Of a DNA stretch of 54,567 nucleotides, positions 4,087 to 18,275 are shown piece by piece. The DNA is taken from IMG/VR virus record IMGVR_UViG_3300012953_000018; one strand, 5' to 3'. The notes beneath the pieces were generated by a model that saw nothing but the letters and a program-made list of their open reading frames with translations, searched no databases and was not told the origin of the DNA. Position 1 is the stretch's first letter. Each line of letters begins with the position of its first letter. A program made the translations under genes and the position numbers. The DNA comes from an uncultured virus (IMG/VR IMGVR_UViG_3300012953_000018) (Duplodnaviria; Heunggongvirae; Uroviricota; Caudoviricetes).

Positions 4087-5619
4087 ATGTCTGATGAAAT
4101 TTATTTAAACATAGGGACAACATTTCAACAACCTTATCAAGGTCAAATAATAAAGAATGCCCAACAACCGAATATAAGAAATATAGTCGGTACTTATCCT
4201 GCTAACGCTCAGGCACCGTTTACCTATCAGAATAGAAGTCCATTTACATACCAAAATCAGGTAAGCGCACAGGAACCTAACATAAGACAGAGACAGTCTC
4301 CGTTCACTTATCAGAGAACTGGACGAACCCCTTTTACTTATCAACATCCTTTTACATACGCTAGACAGGGACAGACTTCATATACTTATCAACAACAAAG
4401 TCCGTTCACCTATCAGAATCCGTATACTACTAGACAACCTAGTATATACGAATATGCATCACCGTTTACTTATACAAGACAGGGACAAACACCCTATCCA
4501 TATCAGGCGAATATTCAACAACCGAATATTAGAAATGCAACTGGTAGAACACCTACTATCGGAAGTGCTCAGCAACCGTATCCTTATATTGCACAAGCAA
4601 GACAACCATCTAATACTCAGGCAATTGTACAGAGTCCAGTGATTGGGCAAGTGTCAGGCACGGTTCCTGTTATTGGACAAGCTCAGACCCTAGTACAAAT
4701 ACAGATTCCATTTTATTCACCTGATGGTGGGCCGTTTACATATAGACAACCATCTCCGTATCCGTTCCAACAGCCTGGGCAAGTGCCAGGCGGTGTACAA
4801 GCAATTGCATCTCAACAACCTTATCCGTATCTTGCACAAAACAGAACACCTGTAACTGGACAAGGTGGGCCTTATGTTGGGCCATATGCTTTCCAACAAC
4901 CTGCGACTGCACCTTTAATAGGAAGAACTCCTGTTCTCTCAAATATTGGAAATGTGAGAGGGCCTACAACTTATCAACACCCATTCACATATGCAAGACA
5001 GGGTAGAAGTCCTTACGATGTTAATGTACAAAATCCATACCCATACACTTATCATCATAGATCACCATTTACCTATGAAAGACAAGGACAAACACCGTAT
5101 CCGTATATTGCAAATATACAACAACCTAATCCAGGCCGTAGTACACAGACGGTTATAAACCATGCAAACCCAGTGTCAGCACAGGAATCTAACCCGTTGT
5201 CAGCACAAGCAACATATCCGTATATTGCAAATGCAAGACAACCAAGTAATGCACAACAACCGTATCCGTATATTGCAAATGCGAGAGAACCACATAACTA
5301 TGACTATAGGTCACCATTTACATATGCAAATCCAGTAAATGCACAGCAACCTTATATTGCAAATGCAAGACAACCTAGTACATATCAGAATCCTTATCCT
5401 TACACATATGATTACAGGTCACCATTCTTGTATCAACAACCTTATTCATTGACAAGAGAGATAGGGCCACTTGCAAAAGTGAAAGGTGTATTCGTAAACG
5501 AAGGTGGAACTCTAAGAAAAGCACAAGAGGTATATGTAAATGCACCTCAAGGGCCACAACCAACTAATGTTGAAAAAATTCACCAATCAGTGCCTAATGC
5601 ACAGTTCTTAAAAGGATAA
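4087..5619 (+). CDS. Pro/Gln/Tyr-rich repeat protein with internally mirrored repeats (putative hairpin fibre)
   Basis: 510 aa built from [QR]xP-anchored 6/8/10/12-aa units (RSPFTY, QQPYPYIANA, QEPNIR). C-terminal KGVFVNEGGTLRKAQEVYVN module. Confidence 0.8.
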   Translation: MSDEIYLNIGTTFQQPYQGQIIKNAQQPNIRNIVGTYPANAQAPFTYQNRSPFTYQNQVSAQEPNIRQRQSPFTYQRTGRTPFTYQHPFTYARQGQTSYTYQQQSPFTYQNPYTTRQPSIYEYASPFTYTRQGQTPYPYQANIQQPNIRNATGRTPTIGSAQQPYPYIAQARQPSNTQAIVQSPVIGQVSGTVPVIGQAQTLVQIQIPFYSPDGGPFTYRQPSPYPFQQPGQVPGGVQAIASQQPYPYLAQNRTPVTGQGGPYVGPYAFQQPATAPLIGRTPVLSNIGNVRGPTTYQHPFTYARQGRSPYDVNVQNPYPYTYHHRSPFTYERQGQTPYPYIANIQQPNPGRSTQTVINHANPVSAQESNPLSAQATYPYIANARQPSNAQQPYPYIANAREPHNYDYRSPFTYANPVNAQQPYIANARQPSTYQNPYPYTYDYRSPFLYQQPYSLTREIGPLAKVKGVFVNEGGTLRKAQEVYVNAPQGPQPTNVEKIHQSVPNAQFLKG

Positions 5620-9061: not shown

Positions 9062-9092
9062 AAAAAGGGGGTGTATGCCCCCTTTCTTTTTT
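9062..9092 (+). terminator. Rho-independent terminator
   Basis: AAAGGGGG-TGTATG-CCCCCTTT followed by a T tract, with an A tract upstream (possibly bidirectional). Confidence 0.8.
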
Positions 9093-9111: not shown

Positions 9112-9119
9112 TATAAATA
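9112..9119 (+). promoter_or_regulatory. T4-type late promoter (TATAAATA)
   Basis: Exact consensus after the terminator and upstream of 9164. Confidence 0.75.
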
Positions 9120-9163: not shown

Positions 9164-9397
9164 ATGGCAGATACCAAAAATTTCAGAATCGAACAAGGAA
9201 TTGACATTGGAACTACCGAAGTTGTAAATTCAAGTGGGAAGATACAGGCAACTGCTGTTTCAACATTAGATACTGATAATATTTCCGAAGGTTCATCTAA
9301 CACCTACTTTACAACAACAAGGGTAAACAACCATCTAGCAGATTCAGGTTCGGCAAAGACGATTAATAATGCTACAATAGATGGAGGCACATTCTAA
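9164..9397 (+). CDS. Small fibre-associated protein ending IDGGTF
   Basis: N-terminus KNFRIEQGIDIGTTEVVNSSG is paralogous to that of 9397. GGAG RBS. Confidence 0.65.
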   Translation: MADTKNFRIEQGIDIGTTEVVNSSGKIQATAVSTLDTDNISEGSSNTYFTTTRVNNHLADSGSAKTINNATIDGGTF

Positions 9398-11679
9398 TGG
9401 CAGCCCAAAACTTTAAAATAAAAAACGGATTGACGATTGGTAGTACCGAAGTCATTGATAGTTCAGGTGATTTAACAAATGCAGCCTTTGGTACTGCAGC
9501 TCTAGAAGCAATCGATGACCAAGTAAATTCACTTTTAACAGCAGGCACAGGAATAACATTAACTTATGATGATTCAGCTGGAACTTTAACAGTAGACAGA
9601 GATGCAGAGGTAGGAGATATTGAAGGAGTCACAGCTGGTGACGGACTTTCAGGTGGTGGAACAAGTGGAACAGTATCACTTGCACTTGATCTAAACGAAT
9701 TAACAGCTGCAACAGTAGATGTTGCAAACGACAGTTTACCTTTCATAGATGGTACTGCAACAAGAAAAGAAAGTATTGCAGACTTAGTATCTGCAATGGC
9801 TGGAACAGGTATTACTGCAACTAACGGTGTTCTTTCTGCAACAGTAGGTGATATCACATCAGTTGTTGCTGGAACAAACTTAAGTGGTGGTGGAACATCA
9901 GGAGATGTCACACTTAATGCAGAACAAAAATTAAATAACACAACTGCACCATACTACCATAATGTAGTAGTGACAGTTAGTGGTGGTAAATTCTTATTTG
10001 ACGGACAAACTTCTTCTCAATCTTTGAGATTAATGCCAAGTATCGTCTATAGATTTGACCAATCAGACAGTTCAAACGGTTCACACCCATTAAGATTTTC
10101 TGAATCATCAGACGGTTCAGAAATGTCAGACGGATATACAATTTATAACAAAGTAGGTACACCAGGCTCTGCTGGTTCATACACAGAAGTTGCATTCGAC
10201 CAAGAAGCACCTTCAATCATGTACTTCTACTGTTCAAATCACAGTGGAATGGGGAATTCAGTATACCTTGGAGACGAGAGTGGAGATATCGCAGGAGTCA
10301 CAGCTGGTGACGGTCTCTCAGGTGGTGGTACATCAGGAACAGTAACACTATCACTAAACAGTTCAGTAGCAGGAGATGGTCTTGCACATTCAAGTGGTGT
10401 ATTATCTCTAGACTTAAACGAATTAACAGCAGCCACAGTCGATGTAGCTGCAGATAGTATTCCAATTATTGACGGTACTGCAACTAGAAAAGAAAGTATT
10501 GCAGATGTAGTAACTGCAGTTGCTGGAGATGGTTTATCTTCATCCAGTGGTGTCCTTGCAGTTGGAGTCGATGATAGTTCAATAGAAACAAATTCTGATG
10601 CACTAAGAGTTAAAGCATCAGGTGTTACAAATGCAATGTTGGCTGGTTCGATTGCAAATGCAAAACTATCAAATAGTGCAGTAACAGTTACAGCGGGTGA
10701 CGGTTTATCAGGTGGTGGTTCAGTATCACTTGGTTCATCAGTTGCACTTGCAGTTGGTGTAGATGACAGTTCAATAGAAACAGACTCAGATGTTTTACGA
10801 GTTAAAGCAAGTGGTGTTACAAATTCAATGTTGGCTGGTTCAATTGCAAATGCAAAATTAGCAAACAGTGCAATAACAATCAACTCTAATTCAACTTCAT
10901 TAGGAAGTTCAGTAACTTTAGATACTGGTGATATTGCAGAAAATGGAAACTTATATTACACAAACGAAAGAGTTGACGATAGAGTTGCAGCTCTCATAGT
11001 TGGTGGTTCAAATATCACTGCAACTTATGACGATGCAGCGGGTACATTAACACTTGCTGGTTCGGCTGCATATGGTGATGCAGATGCAAGACAATCGATA
11101 TCAGTCACAGATAATGGTGGAGACGGTTCACTTGCATATAATAACTCTACAGGTGTTATTACATATAACGGCCCAAGTGCATCAGAAGTAAGAGCTCATT
11201 TAAGTGCTGGAACTGGTGTAGGTTATTCAGGTGGTGCAATCAGTATCGGTCAGGCAGTTGCAACATCAAGTAATGTTCAATTTGCAAACTTAACACTATC
11301 AGGTGACTTAACAGTTAACGGAACAACAACAACCGTATCTTCAACCAACTCTGTAATTGCAGATGCATTGATAGAACTAGGAAATGGAACATCAGGTTCA
11401 CCATCAAACGATGCTGGTCTAGTTATCGAAAGAGGAAGTTCAGACAATGTATTCATTGGTTGGGACGAGAGTGCAGATGCAATCACATTCGGTACAGGTT
11501 CATTTACAGGTGCAGATACAGGTAACCTATCGATTACACCAAGTGCAGTTAATACTGGTGCAATCACAATAACCAACGCTACAAACAGTGGTGGTACAGC
11601 AAGGAATGTATATCAATCGACATCAGCTCCGACAGGTTCAGATGGAGCGGTTGGAGATTTATGGATTTTATACTCTTAA
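9397..11679 (+). CDS. Tail fibre-like protein with internal duplications and a cupredoxin-like domain
   Basis: Repeated TAGDGLSGGG, LDLNELTAATVDVA and VDDSSIET..KASGVTN.MLAGSIANAKL blocks. HPLRFS..YFYCSNHSGMG domain. Ends APTGSDGAVGDLWILYS. Confidence 0.7.
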   Translation: MAAQNFKIKNGLTIGSTEVIDSSGDLTNAAFGTAALEAIDDQVNSLLTAGTGITLTYDDSAGTLTVDRDAEVGDIEGVTAGDGLSGGGTSGTVSLALDLNELTAATVDVANDSLPFIDGTATRKESIADLVSAMAGTGITATNGVLSATVGDITSVVAGTNLSGGGTSGDVTLNAEQKLNNTTAPYYHNVVVTVSGGKFLFDGQTSSQSLRLMPSIVYRFDQSDSSNGSHPLRFSESSDGSEMSDGYTIYNKVGTPGSAGSYTEVAFDQEAPSIMYFYCSNHSGMGNSVYLGDESGDIAGVTAGDGLSGGGTSGTVTLSLNSSVAGDGLAHSSGVLSLDLNELTAATVDVAADSIPIIDGTATRKESIADVVTAVAGDGLSSSSGVLAVGVDDSSIETNSDALRVKASGVTNAMLAGSIANAKLSNSAVTVTAGDGLSGGGSVSLGSSVALAVGVDDSSIETDSDVLRVKASGVTNSMLAGSIANAKLANSAITINSNSTSLGSSVTLDTGDIAENGNLYYTNERVDDRVAALIVGGSNITATYDDAAGTLTLAGSAAYGDADARQSISVTDNGGDGSLAYNNSTGVITYNGPSASEVRAHLSAGTGVGYSGGAISIGQAVATSSNVQFANLTLSGDLTVNGTTTTVSSTNSVIADALIELGNGTSGSPSNDAGLVIERGSSDNVFIGWDESADAITFGTGSFTGADTGNLSITPSAVNTGAITITNATNSGGTARNVYQSTSAPTGSDGAVGDLWILYS

Positions 11680-11700
11680 TTGAGTGAGTGAGGAAAATTA

Positions 11701-12678
11701 ATGGCGTCAGGTTCACAGAAGGTTAAAACACCTGCTGGTTGGAATGCAACCCAAGGTGCTTGGGTAAAGACTGCAAGTTCAACTTGGAAGGCAGTAGACC
11801 AAATTTACATAAAGACAGGCCCCGCAACATGGAATAATGCTTCGGGACAAGAAGCTACGCAAATACCTTATCCATATATTGCAAACGCTCAGAACCCAAC
11901 CATTAAACAGACTATTGTAACATATCCGTATATTGCAAATGCACAGGAACCAAATATTAGGAATAGACAAAATCCATATCCTTATATTGCAGATGCTCAG
12001 GAACCTAACATTAGAGATGCAAGACAACCTGCTACATATCAACATAGGTCACCGTTTACATACAGTCACAGGTCACCTTTAACATATGACTACAGGTCTC
12101 CATCTACTTATCAGAATCCAGTGTCAGCACAGGAACCAAACATAAGAGATGCAAGGCAGCCTGCAACTTATCAACATAGGTCACCATATACATATGATTA
12201 CAGGTCTCCATTAACATACAGTTATGGTTCACCTTTTACATATAGGAGTCCAGTAAACGGACAACAACCTAATATTAGGGATGCAAGACAACCTGCGACT
12301 TATCAACATAGAAGTCCTTTTACATACAGTTATGCATCACCTTTCACATATAATTTTAGGTCACCGTTTACATATAGGAGTCCAGTATCAGCACAACAAC
12401 CGAATATCAGGAATTACCAAACACCGTTTACATATCCTGCGAATGCTAGAACACCTGCGACATATCAGGCTCCAGCAAGACAACCGTTCATTGCACAAGG
12501 TAGAAACCCGTTTACTTATCAGGCTCCAGCAAGACAACCATTTATTGCATCGGGAAGAAACCCGTTTACATATCAGGCACCTGCTAGACAACCTAATAAT
12601 GCAAGTTATCAGTCACCGTTTACATATCATGTGAGAACACCGTTTAACCTACCGACGCCAGGTCAACAACAGAAATAA
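11701..12678 (+). CDS. Pro/Gln/Tyr-rich repeat protein, arm 1 of a mirrored pair
   Basis: Trp-rich N-terminal module (WVKT..TWKAVDQIYIKTG..W) followed by 29 [QR]xP units. GAGG RBS. Confidence 0.8.
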   Translation: MASGSQKVKTPAGWNATQGAWVKTASSTWKAVDQIYIKTGPATWNNASGQEATQIPYPYIANAQNPTIKQTIVTYPYIANAQEPNIRNRQNPYPYIADAQEPNIRDARQPATYQHRSPFTYSHRSPLTYDYRSPSTYQNPVSAQEPNIRDARQPATYQHRSPYTYDYRSPLTYSYGSPFTYRSPVNGQQPNIRDARQPATYQHRSPFTYSYASPFTYNFRSPFTYRSPVSAQQPNIRNYQTPFTYPANARTPATYQAPARQPFIAQGRNPFTYQAPARQPFIASGRNPFTYQAPARQPNNASYQSPFTYHVRTPFNLPTPGQQQK

Positions 12679-12696
12679 TGGGGGATATGAAGTAGA

Positions 12697-13545
12697 ATGC
12701 CACAGTTACCTTACATTGCACAAGCGAGACAACCAGTCCCGTTTACAACGCAGACTCCGTTCACATATCCTGCGAACGCACAACAACCGTTTACATATAA
12801 CGCACAGAATCCGTTTACTTATCCAGCAAACGCAAGGCAACCGTTCACCTATAATGCACAGAATCCGTTCACTTATCCAGCGAACTATCAACAACCGTTT
12901 ACTTATCAAGCATCTGCGAGACAACCTAACACATATCATTATAGGTCACCGTTTACATATAGAAACCCAGTAAACGGACAACAACCTCATATTAGAAATG
13001 CACAACAACCTAATATTAGAAGTGCTCAGGAACCTAACATAAGGAACTCTCAGACACCATTTACATATCATTATAGGTCTCCATTTACCTATAGAAATCC
13101 AGTGTCAGCTCAGGAACCTAACATTAGAAACCAACAGGAACCTAATATTAGAAGTATACAGGAACCTAACATAAGGAACAATCAAACTCCGTTCACTTAT
13201 AACTACAGGTCTCCATTCACTTATAGGAATCCAGTAAACGCCCAAGAACCTAATATAAGGAACCAACAGGAACCTAATATCAGAGATAGTCAAGAACCTA
13301 ATATTAGAAATAATCAGACACCGTTTACCTATGACTATAGGTCACCGTTCACTTATCAAAGAACAGGACAAACACCTGATACATATTCATATAGAAGTCC
13401 ATCGACTTATCAGGTGATTGCAAATACGCAGAACCCATATAACTTTAGAAGTCCTTCTACATATGCAAGACAAGGAAGAACTCCTGAACCAAGATGGGAT
13501 GGTGCAGTTCAACAACAGTGGCCAGGGACTCCAATATCCTCATAA
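12697..13545 (+). CDS. Pro/Gln/Tyr-rich repeat protein, arm 2 of a mirrored pair
   Basis: 29 units whose lengths are the exact reverse of those in 11701-12678. Same reading frame, separated by TAA..TGA. Confidence 0.75.
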   Translation: MPQLPYIAQARQPVPFTTQTPFTYPANAQQPFTYNAQNPFTYPANARQPFTYNAQNPFTYPANYQQPFTYQASARQPNTYHYRSPFTYRNPVNGQQPHIRNAQQPNIRSAQEPNIRNSQTPFTYHYRSPFTYRNPVSAQEPNIRNQQEPNIRSIQEPNIRNNQTPFTYNYRSPFTYRNPVNAQEPNIRNQQEPNIRDSQEPNIRNNQTPFTYDYRSPFTYQRTGQTPDTYSYRSPSTYQVIANTQNPYNFRSPSTYARQGRTPEPRWDGAVQQQWPGTPISS

Positions 13546-13566
13546 AATAACACTCTAAATACAAGT

Positions 13567-15129
13567 ATGTTAGAATCAATTAACACACTTGAAAAAGCAC
13601 GCAGAGTTAACTTCAAAAGGACTGCAGAAGAAACCGTTAGGACGCCAGGTACAATAGATGTGGCTGCACTTAATATTGGTCAATATGATTTTGCTAGAGA
13701 AGACACAGAAGCTTCAGTAAACTTCAAAGAAGTATTGACTTATATCATGGGAGAGATGGCACCAATCAGAATAGTCCCATGGAAAAAAATAAAACCACTT
13801 ATGGACTCAGGTGAGTTAATGTCCTTTGGACAATTACATCACAATGCATTTCTATATCACAGATATCTACATGAAGGATGGACTGCCCCATTAAGACCTA
13901 ATCATCCTATCGCTGGTGGATCAATGGATTTCATGAACTCTAAAGGTGAATATCAGAAGTTATCAACTATAAGTGACCATGAAGATTGTAATGAGTTAAA
14001 TGACGAAGAAGAAAACCAAGTTTGTTCAGTATACTATCACGCTGCAAAAGGTCACTGGTTAGTTAATAACATACAGAAAGAAGGATTAAGACATCCTATA
14101 CAAGGTCATACAAACGGTAGTAAACTATCAATACATCCAGGCTCAATTCGTTGTAGAGTATATGAGGTAATGGATGAACCTGAATTTGAAACTGTAGTTA
14201 CTGATTATGAAAACAAGTTTGAAGATGTACCAGCTTTATCTGCAGATGAATTGTTGGAGTATTGGAGAGGTATCGGTAATGGTCAAGGTACACTATCAGC
14301 AATATGGTGTGAACATGAAGGTAAGTTAGAGTTTTCAATATCGACTGTTGCTGGATTAAATTTTAGAGAAGAAGTTTTTGACTTTAATAAAAAGGTTACA
14401 AAACTTTGTAGTGGTAAACCAGTGAACATTTACATTGGTTATGATTCAAATCATCCTGAGTTATTTGATGTATCAGAACGATCCATTCATGCAAGTATTG
14501 AAAGGATGAGGTCAGGGGGAGTTGCATCTGAGTATTTCAATGACTATAAAGTAGAAGTTAAGAAACTTGACATCAATGCAATTTCTGAGTATACTAGAGA
14601 ATATGCAAACCAGTCTACTGAATTTACTTACAGTAGATTCCTAATTCCATATCTAGAAAACTATGAAGGATTTAGTTTTTTCATGGACGATGACTACATA
14701 TGGAGACATAATCCATTAGGATTATTCTATTTCCTAGACCCTGATAATGCAGTAGCTTGTGTTCAATATGATTTTAAAACTCATGCAGAAACAAAATTCA
14801 ACGGAGAGAAGAATGTTTCTTATCCTAAAAAATTATGGTCGAGTATGATGATATTTAATAACTCACATGAAGATTGTAAGAAGTTGACACCTGAAGCAGT
14901 CAATACATGGACGGGTAAACAACTACATCAGTTTGAGTGGACAGATAAGATAAGTAAAATTCCTCATGATAAAATTTGTACTGAGGGATATGAGGAGTCT
15001 TTCAATCAGTCTCACCATGCAATCCATTATACAAGGGGTGGGCCTTGGATAAAAGACATGGATTATTCCCACATAAATATGTTAGAAACATATGACAAAT
15101 ATAAAAACCAATTGCCAAAAGGCAATTAA
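13567..15129 (+). CDS. Two-domain protein: unknown N-terminal domain plus C-terminal GT-A glycosyltransferase
   Basis: IYIGYD, STEFTYSRFLIPYL, FMDDD (DxD), YPKKLWSSMMIFN, LHQFEW, HYTRGGPW are typical of a phage/bacterial GT-A family. Confidence 0.75.
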   Translation: MLESINTLEKARRVNFKRTAEETVRTPGTIDVAALNIGQYDFAREDTEASVNFKEVLTYIMGEMAPIRIVPWKKIKPLMDSGELMSFGQLHHNAFLYHRYLHEGWTAPLRPNHPIAGGSMDFMNSKGEYQKLSTISDHEDCNELNDEEENQVCSVYYHAAKGHWLVNNIQKEGLRHPIQGHTNGSKLSIHPGSIRCRVYEVMDEPEFETVVTDYENKFEDVPALSADELLEYWRGIGNGQGTLSAIWCEHEGKLEFSISTVAGLNFREEVFDFNKKVTKLCSGKPVNIYIGYDSNHPELFDVSERSIHASIERMRSGGVASEYFNDYKVEVKKLDINAISEYTREYANQSTEFTYSRFLIPYLENYEGFSFFMDDDYIWRHNPLGLFYFLDPDNAVACVQYDFKTHAETKFNGEKNVSYPKKLWSSMMIFNNSHEDCKKLTPEAVNTWTGKQLHQFEWTDKISKIPHDKICTEGYEESFNQSHHAIHYTRGGPWIKDMDYSHINMLETYDKYKNQLPKGN

Positions 15130-15707: not shown

Positions 15708-16394
15708 ATGGAACAGGTCAATGTACATTACATTGATGAGCCTTTCCGTATTGAGGATATGCCACTAGGTAACAATGTTTATGTTGTAGATAACTATCTA
15801 GAAGAAGCAATATTCAAAAAGATAGACCATGAATTGACACATTGTGCATGGCAAAAAACAAATCAAGTCCAAGGTAATAAGAAAGGGAGAGGTGGATTAC
15901 CACAACACTCTTTATGGGGAGCTTGTTTTTTTAATGGTCATGATATGAAAGACGGTCATCTAAGTGGAGAAAATGGATATCGAAATTATTTGTTTAGATA
16001 TCTTGATAGAAAATTAAGAACAGACTTTGGGTTTGATTGGGTTAGATTTCAATACGCTGGAGCAAACTCACAAACTATGGGTCAACATGGAACTTGTCAT
16101 TCAGATTGTCATGAAGATGATGAATGGAATCTTTCTTTTCTATTTTATACCAATCAATTTTGGAATCCAAATTGGGGTGGTAAGTTAAGATTTTATGATG
16201 AAACAATTCAAGGTGGTATAAAAGATTTAATGGATGAACATGAAATAGGTCATGTTGATTTTAAACCTAATAGACTGTTAATGTTTGATGGAAGAATACC
16301 ACATGGTGCAGAAGCACCAACTGAGAAAGCAAGATATATTGATAGGAAATCAATTGTTATTAGAGGTGATGAGATACAATTATGCCAACAATAG
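15708..16394 (+). CDS. 2OG-Fe(II) oxygenase (prolyl-hydroxylase-like)
   Basis: HxD (HSD), WNPNWGGKLRF, FKPNRLLMFDGRIPH, distal R. Confidence 0.8.
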   Translation: MEQVNVHYIDEPFRIEDMPLGNNVYVVDNYLEEAIFKKIDHELTHCAWQKTNQVQGNKKGRGGLPQHSLWGACFFNGHDMKDGHLSGENGYRNYLFRYLDRKLRTDFGFDWVRFQYAGANSQTMGQHGTCHSDCHEDDEWNLSFLFYTNQFWNPNWGGKLRFYDETIQGGIKDLMDEHEIGHVDFKPNRLLMFDGRIPHGAEAPTEKARYIDRKSIVIRGDEIQLCQQ

Positions 16395-17305: not shown

Positions 17306-17983
17306 ATGTCGTCAGTTAGATTATTGTTTCCCATTCCTCTTTTTGAGTTTAATCTCTTAGAGGAAGGGTTAGTGTCAGAAGAATATCTGCAGTCTTTGAA
17401 GGCAGATATGGATAGACAAAGAAGAAAAGACCCAGTGGGAAGAAAGATATCTAACGCATATACTGGATGGCAGTCCAATGATGGAGTTGAAAGAATTCCA
17501 GTTTGGGGTAAGCTCATGCGTATAATCAAGGACAAATATAATCACGAAGTTTTACCTTGGATGGGTGTTACACAAGCATCCGTTGTAATAGGTAACGCAT
17601 GGGGAAATATAAATGACAGAGGTGCATGGAATAAACCCCATAGACATAATGGATGTTGGATGAGTGGGTCTTTTTATGTTCATGCAGACGGAGATGAAGG
17701 TAACTTTGTTGCAGTAAACAAGAGTGAAAATGTTGTATCAGAGTTCCCACATAACGGTAAAGAAAGGGACATGCATCCAGTCTCACCTATCACAGGAACC
17801 CTGCTATTGTTCCCTAGCGGTCTGCTACATATGGTAGAACCTAATATGACCGATAAAGACCGTTACAGTGTAGCATTCAATACAGAGACATATCGATATA
17901 GTTCAGACCCCCATGCAACCTTCGCTCCATGTGATAATGACTGGAATAAGTTTAGTCTTGATGACCCTAAAGTAAAGGGTTAA
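17306..17983 (+). CDS. Putative 2OG-Fe(II) oxygenase (TIGR02466-like)
   Basis: LFPIP start, SN..GWQS, W.NIN, PHRH, SGSFYV, LLLFPS.L.H.V.PN, RYSVAFN. Confidence 0.8.
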   Translation: MSSVRLLFPIPLFEFNLLEEGLVSEEYLQSLKADMDRQRRKDPVGRKISNAYTGWQSNDGVERIPVWGKLMRIIKDKYNHEVLPWMGVTQASVVIGNAWGNINDRGAWNKPHRHNGCWMSGSFYVHADGDEGNFVAVNKSENVVSEFPHNGKERDMHPVSPITGTLLLFPSGLLHMVEPNMTDKDRYSVAFNTETYRYSSDPHATFAPCDNDWNKFSLDDPKVKG

Positions 17984-18267: not shown

Positions 18268-18275
18268 TATAAATA
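18268..18275 (+). promoter_or_regulatory. T4-type late promoter overlapping a hairpin
   Basis: TATAAATA overlaps the left arm of the 10-bp inverted repeat AATAGTAGTA/TACTACTATT that ends at the gp13 ATG. Confidence 0.75.

Follow-up and report, generated by a model that had tools for sequence, protein, structure and literature searches.

Several described protein systems hold chains in register through a repeating code, including antiparallel heterodimeric coiled coils (heptads) and register-specific collagen heterotrimers (Gly-X-Y), and in streptococcal antigen I/II an Ala-rich alpha-helix pairs with a Pro-rich polyproline-II helix of the same single chain to give a thin stalk. Among phage proteins, the octapeptide repeat of T4 gp5 follows the motif VxGxxxxx. 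Here we compare these systems with two adjacent genes, A (11701..12678, + strand) and B (12697..13545, + strand), located in a 54,567-nt stretch of DNA from an uncultured virus (IMG/VR IMGVR_UViG_3300012953_000018; the whole stretch is hereafter termed the window). The two products carry repeat arms in which the units of one run in mirror order to those of the other, and we propose that A and B are probably late structural proteins of a marine T4-like myovirus which pair as an antiparallel, in-register A:B beta duplex to form one long thin fibre.

Two structures of T4 provide the closest points of reference. The needle of gp37 (domains D10-D11) is a trimer with antiparallel strands running out and back along its axis, in which core histidines arranged in HxH motifs hold seven iron atoms (as given in part of PMC6957217). 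What A and B share with it, judged on their side from sequence statistics only, is a long thin beta structure of a T4-like fibre with antiparallel strands; unlike in gp37, where a single chain per subunit covers a short distance, the out and back strands would be two gene products of hundreds of residues. A and B further differ from gp37 in their two-class unit code and in having no sequence similarity to any solved structure (best phmmer matches to PDB sequences, unrelated proteins only, at E 0.34 for A and 0.81 for B), and HxH motifs number zero in both proteins. By analogy, A and B may work somewhat like the gp37 needle. The C-terminal domain of gp5 is a triple-stranded beta-helix, that is, a parallel homotrimer of octapeptide repeats (as given in part of PMC4576200). 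The eight-residue period recurs in A, where 8 is the modal spacing of the Q/R-x-P anchors that punctuate the repeats (1107 of 2258 spacings), whereas the A/B signal is antiparallel and heterotypic, and V.G sites occur only once per protein.

The comparison extends to the code-bearing systems introduced above. Unlike coiled coils and collagens, A and B combine a two-residue period, units of 6-12 residues, heterotypic unit classes and mirror-matched insertions and deletions (indels). Runs of three or more G-x-x triplets are absent from both, and just 796 of the 2258 A spacings are multiples of three, nearly all of them 6 or 12, which is not the pattern of a collagen or polyproline-II chain. The likeness to antigen I/II is that differing repeat regions pair over a long distance in opposite directions; the differences are that A and B are two chains, that both are punctuated by proline, and that their period-2 parity does not fit polyproline II. 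Given no HxH motifs, no Gly-X-Y runs and one V.G site each, A and B fall outside the gp37-needle, collagen-like and gp5 beta-helix families. The original prediction for this locus knew of no described phage fibre family with such an architecture, and a full-text literature search, judged mostly from listings, likewise found none. Neither protein matches a Pfam or PHROG family. Among cultured phages, tblastn against 50,697 phage records returned one weak Vibrio phage match for A (33% identity) and none for its N-terminal domain, and no A/B family match was found in Pelagibacter phage Mosig or Methylophilales phage Melnitz. A profile search across 1.84 billion representatives gave 159 matches, and the 106 homologues of the N-terminal part of A are all unnamed or labelled hypothetical.

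Mirror order and unit code of the A and B arms

Gene A is an open reading frame (ORF) of 325 amino acids (aa) consisting of a Trp-rich N-terminal domain (aa 1-53, 11701..11859), a repeat arm of 29 units of 6-12 residues each (aa 54-311, 11860..12633) and a short tail (aa 312-325, 12634..12675) lying past the residue that faces the first residues of B. The N-terminal domain is the most conserved stretch of A, with invariant or near-invariant columns over aa 1-50 in an alignment of 43 sequences (A1). After an 18-nt spacer (12679..12696) with GGGGGA ahead of the ATG, gene B, an ORF of 282 aa, begins with a repeat arm of 29 units (aa 3-260, 12703..13476) whose lengths are those of A in reverse (mirror constant c = 313) and ends in a C-terminal tail (aa 261-282, 13477..13542, RTPEPRWDG...QWPGTPISS). 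This tail is conserved family-wide, with R113, W114, D115, W122 and P123 invariant in a 44-sequence alignment (A2, whose numbering is used), and adjoins the A N-terminal domain in mirror register. All of these features lie on the + strand. Both proteins are rich in P, Q, N, T, Y and R, with scarce Leu and no Cys. Small contigs from RNA libraries are identical to the locus at 11530-11790, 12671-12834 and 13356-13507, a weak hint of expression for which DNA carry-over is possible.

The original prediction had listed 29 unit lengths for each arm, 258 aa in total, with the list for B exactly the reverse of that for A. The reversal stands (B aa 3-260 against A aa 54-311), but the list does not follow from a strict split at [QR]xP: its parse merged 6+6 to 12 and 6+4 to 10, cut one 18-residue piece into 6+12, and left nine internal [QR]xP sites unused as boundaries (six in A, three in B). 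Nor does just one anchor of the first arm lack its proline, as had been stated, three A units starting without [QR]xP (QTI..., GSP... and ASP...). Since the central 3 x (8,8,8,8,12) block is trivially palindromic, whole arms were tested with a second parser, built differently and without merging, which places 33 boundaries in A and 34 in B; the two flanks alone permit 60 x 126 = 7560 orders. Under mirror mapping, 29 of the 33 boundaries coincide, compared with 19 at the best parallel offset and with a mean of 12.3 and a maximum of 19 across 300 shuffles of the B unit order. The mirror order is confirmed as an observation. The same array is carried by two contigs from other runs and studies, one of 2891 nt spanning all of 11500-13700, from which it differs by 16 substitutions and by two 1-nt indels that offset each other, the other of 1954 nt with a single substitution.

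The symmetry had been placed at the level of protein, as the DNA units were said not to be reverse complements, and this was borne out. The only inverted arms found measure 16-18 nt, the best minus-strand blastn match covers 11 nt (E 0.35), with the plus strand showing 70% identity over 209 nt, and antisense translations of A gave no match to B (best E 0.11). Together these results rule out inverted DNA duplication and antisense coding as sources of the mirror.

IMG/VR yielded 298 relatives of A, the best 80 being retained, whereas for B it gave 78; A and B are adjacent in all of the first 80 loci. From marine viral contigs, 54 unique A/B pairs were assembled, with A ranging over 308-774 aa and B over 222-562 aa, and comprising 43 A and 40 B architectures. 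The gene order is common to all 54 loci (the fibre-like gene, then A, B, a 520-aa gene and a 185-aa gene), which therefore represent one lineage. The mirror register is kept throughout these homologues: coincidence of boundaries reaches at least 90% in 39 of the 54 pairs and at least 80% in 51, and in every pair it exceeds both the best parallel offset and all of 300 shuffles. Pairing is also specific, in that the cognate B is the best fit among the 40 B architectures for 49 of the 54 A proteins, with a mean fit of 0.894 for cognate pairs versus 0.389 for non-cognate pairs of different architecture. Furthermore, total arm lengths of A and B are equal across a range of about 250 to 590 residues, and in the 53 pairs where a pattern search located the RWDG tail of B, its offset from the first A anchor departs from a fixed value only five times. 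A further scan of loci L081-L157 with strict end-motif patterns yielded one new pair.

Indels in one arm had been predicted to be matched in the other. We examined this on a tree of the neighbouring 520-aa gene, where 10 of 16 sister pairs differ in length, and found the prediction borne out in part: six of the ten change together in A and B (by +164/+160, +21/+20, -25/-26, -151/-144, +14/+18 and +13/+20), and four are unmatched.

The facing units are of unlike type. We distinguish 'T' units (xxPxTY.., bearing F, Y or H) from 'I' units (xxPNIR.., xxPYIA.., xxPYPYIA.. and xxPVSA). In the window, as had been proposed, QEPNIRxx faces xxPFTYxY and PYPYIANA faces xxPxTYxRxG. The compound FTY+PVSA unit faces itself. 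Each arm contains a central block of three 44-aa super-repeats, ordered [NIR, xTY, xTY, xTY, FTY+PVSA] in A (aa 100-231, 11998..12393, + strand) and [FTY+PVSA, NIR, NIR, NIR, xTY] in B (aa 83-214, 12943..13338, + strand), such that A [NIR, xTY, xTY, xTY, 12] faces B [xTY, NIR, NIR, NIR, 12]. Of the anchor pairings originally suggested, RSP facing QEP or QQP fits the best residue register; RQP facing QTP proved imprecise at the level of units, the RQPATYQH units of A facing QEPNIR units of B. Across 2041 length-matched facing units in the relatives, A NIR8 faces B xTY8 in 319 of 324 cases, and PYPYIA10 faces xTY10 in 214 of 215. The 572 A xTY8 units face NIR8 418 times, xIA8 138 times and xTY8 once, and in the 12-residue unit the FTY half lies opposite the PVSA half of the partner.

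Residue volume is compensated between facing units, as seen in 466 unique unit pairs. Where position 4 of the I unit is N, position 8 of the T unit is H or Y (269/276), and where it is Y, the T residue is A or N (80/102). Similarly, A or G at position 8 of the I unit faces F at position 4 of the T unit (254/299), and Q at that position faces L or T (33/40), with F found once. His is the commonest residue at T-unit position 8 (276 of the 466). The placement of aromatic knobs opposite small or flexible residues suggests why T would have to face I. Charge complementarity between chains or between unit classes was considered and rejected, both chains being basic and the I and T units averaging +0.18 and +0.43. 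Net charges in the window are +21 for A and +13 for B, with means of +21.5 and +25.6 over the 54 pairs; a fibre so strongly cationic might bind anionic cell-surface polymers.

Residue register, candidate duplex and variant forms

Anchor spacings are almost always even (2242/2258, or 99.3%, in A; 2002/2050, or 97.7%, in B), and nearly all prolines of a chain share one parity (2587 in A and 2155 in B, with only 16 and 48 in the other). Such a two-residue period over hundreds of residues fits an extended, beta-like strand and not the three-residue polyproline helix. Setting the arms at an odd register offset would separate the two faces of the duplex: the first contains 27.8% Pro and 0% aromatic residues and the second 33.1% F/Y/W/H and 0% Pro, and the same face is richer in aromatic and aliphatic residues in 1683 of 1685 local windows. 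At even offsets, including the unit mirror itself, both faces are mixed.

Antiparallel pairing had been expected to leave an anti-diagonal signal, and one was detected. Among 39 pairs, pair information peaks at a single antiparallel register, offset +3, with 1.69 bits. The runner-up offset carries 1.45 bits and offset 0 carries 1.12 bits, while no parallel offset has more than 0.31 bits. In the +3 register, Q/R-x-P anchors face anchors, Arg6 faces Tyr6, and position 8 of the I unit faces position 4 of the T unit. Within the window, facings of Pro with Q or R number 66 at c' = 316 and 39 at the next best register. The residue register is thus displaced by three residues from the mirror of unit boundaries. 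A sliding-window analysis of 'local register' was too noisy, owing to the periodicity. The mirror rule, the type rule, the parity and the covariation are established, as is the conservation of each.

In the assembly that we propose, A and B would lie side by side in opposite directions, each arm forming an extended strand of two-residue period with its prolines on one face and its aromatic residues on the other. The arms would consist of short T and I units, a T unit standing opposite an I unit of equal length, and in the best register the Q/R-x-P anchors would face each other, Arg would face Tyr, and bulky residues would face small ones. With register encoded in the order and length of units, the gain or loss of a unit in one chain would therefore need a match at the mirror position of its partner. 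The N-terminal domain of A and the C-terminal tail of B would join at one end, and the tail of A and the N-terminus of B at the other. The aromatic face might be buried within a higher oligomer, for instance one of three duplexes, a possibility that we hold only tentatively. The earlier interpretation of two chains zipped antiparallel is supported, with its physical structure, its two-strand limit and the epithet 'programmable' still hypothetical; the 85 nm quoted for the ribbon is arithmetic (258 x 0.33 nm). That the chains physically pair in a beta duplex, and that the fibre would serve in host recognition, is our reading of the sequences.

Variant arrangements of the same repeats were also identified. 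From 17 inspected loci, 13 further pairs were picked by hand, and thus non-randomly, comprising six of a sister family with terminal domains other than those of A and B, two with the gene order B-A, and five divergent A/B pairs. All 13 are antiparallel by their Pro:Q/R facings (z 5.9-8.9), which score roughly double the best parallel alignment. The signal is kept in the reversed loci L102 (1391-2918; z 5.9) and L126 (4968-6390; z 6.8). In another locus, L155 (3783-5831), a 682-aa ORF carries the A N-terminal domain first and the B tail last, and pairs with itself antiparallel at c' = 712 with a score of 63 (mean 14.5, standard deviation (sd) 7.2; best parallel 31), its fold-back point falling within a non-repeat linker. 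A fusion of this kind excludes parallel side-by-side pairing; a hairpin fits, and an end-to-end rod is also compatible. L155 is a single contig, in which a sequencing error joining the two genes is possible. Fused A-B forms were absent from the 16 longest of the 159 profile matches, most of which were unrelated low-complexity proteins.

The window encodes a third repeat protein of 510 aa (4087-5619, + strand) with 25 P-x-[TI]-[YRAK] motifs. Its start resembles that of the first gene of the sister family (MSDEIY...QQPY) and its end that of the second (...EKIHQSVPNAQF), so that it appears to present the sister pair as one chain; the facings of its N-arm and C-arm are suggestive only, since their Pro:Q/R score reaches 29 in antiparallel (c' = 471; mean 9.0, sd 4.6) and 25 in the best parallel alignment. 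Three distant relatives of 600-660 aa (P0128, P0115 and P0195) start with MSDDIFIK... or similar; they have a short NIR/xTY arm, a large middle part free of repeats, and a Hint-like end at the C-terminus (...NNFYANG...).

The ends of the arms differ in their conservation. The conserved ends, namely the A N-terminal domain and the B C-terminal tail, meet in mirror register, and the first residues of B always face the last repeat unit of A. Beyond the pairing, the A tails of the 54 pairs fall into three classes: short tails, a Gly-rich linker followed by a Hint-like domain, and another domain of about 150 aa accompanied by a small ORF. The short tails mostly measure 11-20 residues (0-30 overall; 12-14 in the window), with an A-B gap of 0-66 nt, and in some relatives the genes abut or overlap. 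In the second class, all four tested A proteins matched PF14890 at E 2e-8 to 1.5e-5 (25-35 bits, below the cut-off of 35.8), as well as PF01079 and PF14623, and the G-rich linker and C...HN features are visible by eye; A of the window, with a tail of just 14 aa, is without such a domain. The Hint/intein-like domain spans about 170-200 aa in L037, L025, L063, L050 and others, beginning about 10 residues after the residue that faces the N-terminus of B, and it is conceivable that it might cleave itself or ligate A to B at the hairpin end. In the third class (types L020, L068 and L073), the A-B gap of 284-317 nt holds the small ORF, which is absent from the window; that of L020 (6377-6655, 92 aa) occupies a position typical of a fibre assembly chaperone. 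We infer that the end formed by the A N-terminal domain and the B C-terminal tail would be the virion-proximal, attachment end. The end at which the A tail and the B N-terminus meet is read as distal because both are variable there and the opposite end is conserved.

Points against the duplex and alternative explanations

A number of observations weigh against the duplex. The model is derived from sequence, with A and B as putative virion proteins, and the +3 register and the argument from faces are themselves inferences from sequence statistics. Regular beta sheets do not usually contain proline at intervals of 6-12 residues, and A and B, both being strongly basic, should repel each other electrostatically. 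In three pairs (L015, L016 and L034) the two arms disagree by one or two super-repeats (44 or 88 aa), with the A of each fitting the B of a sister type, and in two others (L023 and L027) each A fits the partner of the other better; these five mismatched pairs may have arisen by natural recombination of types that occur together, or as chimeras of assembly. Among the four unmatched length changes between sister pairs, three occur at zero branch length, and in a pair added later (L131, 700/489 aa) just 41 of 57 boundaries coincide. The second parser was written with the sequences already seen. Finally, counts and information values are inflated because the 54 loci are one syntenic lineage and their repeats share ancestry; despite this inflation, the comparisons between offsets draw on the same data throughout.

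Structure predictions weigh neither way. ESMFold2 complexes of three copies each of A aa 1-160 and B aa 154-282, using alignments A1 and A2, returned an interface score (ipSAE, interaction prediction score from aligned errors) of 0.00 in both runs. AlphaFold2 models are too poor to judge lone folding, with a predicted local distance difference test (pLDDT) score of 48.2 and short strands for B alone without an alignment, and of 34.5 for A aa 1-160 (43 sequences), where no strands fall in the repeats and the short strands of the N-terminal domain reach a pLDDT of only about 50-56.

The alternative that survives best, although we consider it unlikely, is that A and B each form a parallel homotrimeric segment and are joined end to end, the C-terminus of A to the N-terminus of B, in which case the mirror order would be meaningless between chains. 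Such an arrangement would follow the rule among phage fibres, which are parallel homotrimers of serial proteins as in T4 gp34-gp37 (stated in part of PMC6957217), and octapeptide periodicity is found in the parallel triple beta-helix of T4 gp5 (stated in part of PMC4576200); the L155 fusion and the adjacent gene order are equally compatible with it. Left unexplained, however, are the mirror-ordered equal unit lengths in 39-51 of the 54 pairs, the equal arm totals, the single T-facing-T case in 572, the volume compensation, and the cognate best fit of 49 in 54.

It is very unlikely that A and B make no mutual contact and instead lie in opposite directions along a third periodic partner which dictates their unit order. 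A common template would favour like units alongside like, not the strict complementarity of T and I, and leaves the compensation of residue volume between A and B unexplained; arm length moreover varies more than twofold among relatives, a range measured for the A and B arms only. A candidate partner does exist in the 760-aa fibre-like gene, syntenic in 54/54 loci, and direct contact between A and B rests on sequence statistics.

Still less likely is that both proteins are disordered, low-complexity Q/N/P/Y-rich material with a sticky or coating function and no fixed pairing, the mirror being a by-product of repeat evolution. The amino acid composition given above would suit such material, but tandem duplication cannot yield mirror order and inverted DNA duplication is excluded, while the strict even spacing (2242/2258), the fixed register to both conserved termini and the cognate specificity are not predicted by it. 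An artefact of a tuned parse or of mis-assembled metagenomic repeats is highly improbable, for although the earlier parse has merges and three irregular anchors, and tandem repeats are prone to being collapsed or exchanged in short-read assemblies (a possible source of the five mismatched pairs), the second parser and the parser-free statistic of Pro facing Q/R agree on the register, two contigs from other studies carry the same array, and 43 A architectures obey the rule.

Genomic context and implications

The window is the structural region of a marine T4-like myovirus, and its stretch was detected in 17 DNA runs of marine metagenomes. As assigned by Pfam and PHROG, genes for a T4-type neck protein, the sheath stabiliser gp15, large terminase, sheath, portal and scaffold lie downstream of A and B, and tail-fibre and baseplate-like genes upstream. 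The portal protein shares 56% identity with its counterparts in Methylophilales phage Melnitz and Pelagibacter phage Mosig (Kyanoviridae), and about 54% with the portals of cyanomyoviruses. Immediately preceding A is the 760-aa tail-fibre-like gene (9397..11679, + strand), which matches the tail fibre protein family phrog_30742 (2.3e-14) and phrog_697 and is the fibre-like gene syntenic with A and B in all 54 loci.

The motif TATAAATA, which we take to be the T4 late-promoter consensus, has 10 copies in the window, all of them on the + strand, compared with an expectation of 4.28, and none of 100 shuffles reached 10. Its nearest copy upstream of the operon formed by the 9164-ORF, the 760-aa fibre-like gene, A and B lies at 9112..9119 (+ strand) and is immediately preceded by a terminator-like hairpin (9064-9085). 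Other copies mostly lie just upstream of structural genes, e.g. at 18268, 23623, 26180 and 28840. The setting is that of a generic tail-fibre or host-recognition module, with tail-fibre, baseplate and neck neighbours and a late-promoter-like motif enriched on the strand. In pelagimyophages and cyanomyophages, the region upstream of the neck gene gp14 is a hypervariable 'host recognition cluster' of tail fibres and glycosyltransferases (as described in part of PMC7029224). A and B sit inside the region so termed, in a tail-fibre and neck module.

Directly after B lies the 520-aa gene (13567-15129, + strand), present in 54/54 related loci and without a Pfam match. For its C-terminal half (roughly aa 281-520), the ESM Atlas shows a likeness to family-8 glycosyltransferases (feature score 0.89, TM 0.87-0.88), which serves as a lead only; modification of the fibre or of the host surface by the gene product is conceivable. 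Two 2OG-Fe(II) oxygenase genes, at 15708-16394 (PF13640 at 2.6e-9) and 17306-17983 (PF13759 at 5.7e-19), both on the + strand, lie just downstream of A and B, proteins with one invariant proline per unit, and might conceivably hydroxylate these anchor prolines; the first of the two is syntenic in 49 of the 54 loci.

With chances that we regard as evenly balanced, A and B could represent a natural protein analogue of a nucleic-acid duplex, in which two unit classes would pair heterotypically, residue by residue and antiparallel, the unit order of two genes would set length and register, indels would be compensated as in an RNA stem, and the same code would be deployed split, reversed or as a single-chain hairpin. 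If the code were direct and sufficient, it would be re-writable to give protein fibres of chosen length and register. The A:B duplex, if correctly read, would be a new way of building a long protein rod, with two different chains zipped head to tail by a unit code whose indels are compensated, as opposed to the parallel homotrimers known for phage fibres. Structural biology would gain a beta-duplex architecture, so far unexplored, whose two faces are made up of proline and of aromatic residues, and protein design a natural heterotypic pairing code. For marine virology, it would provide a way into the host-recognition apparatus of a T4-like lineage that is abundant and uncultured.

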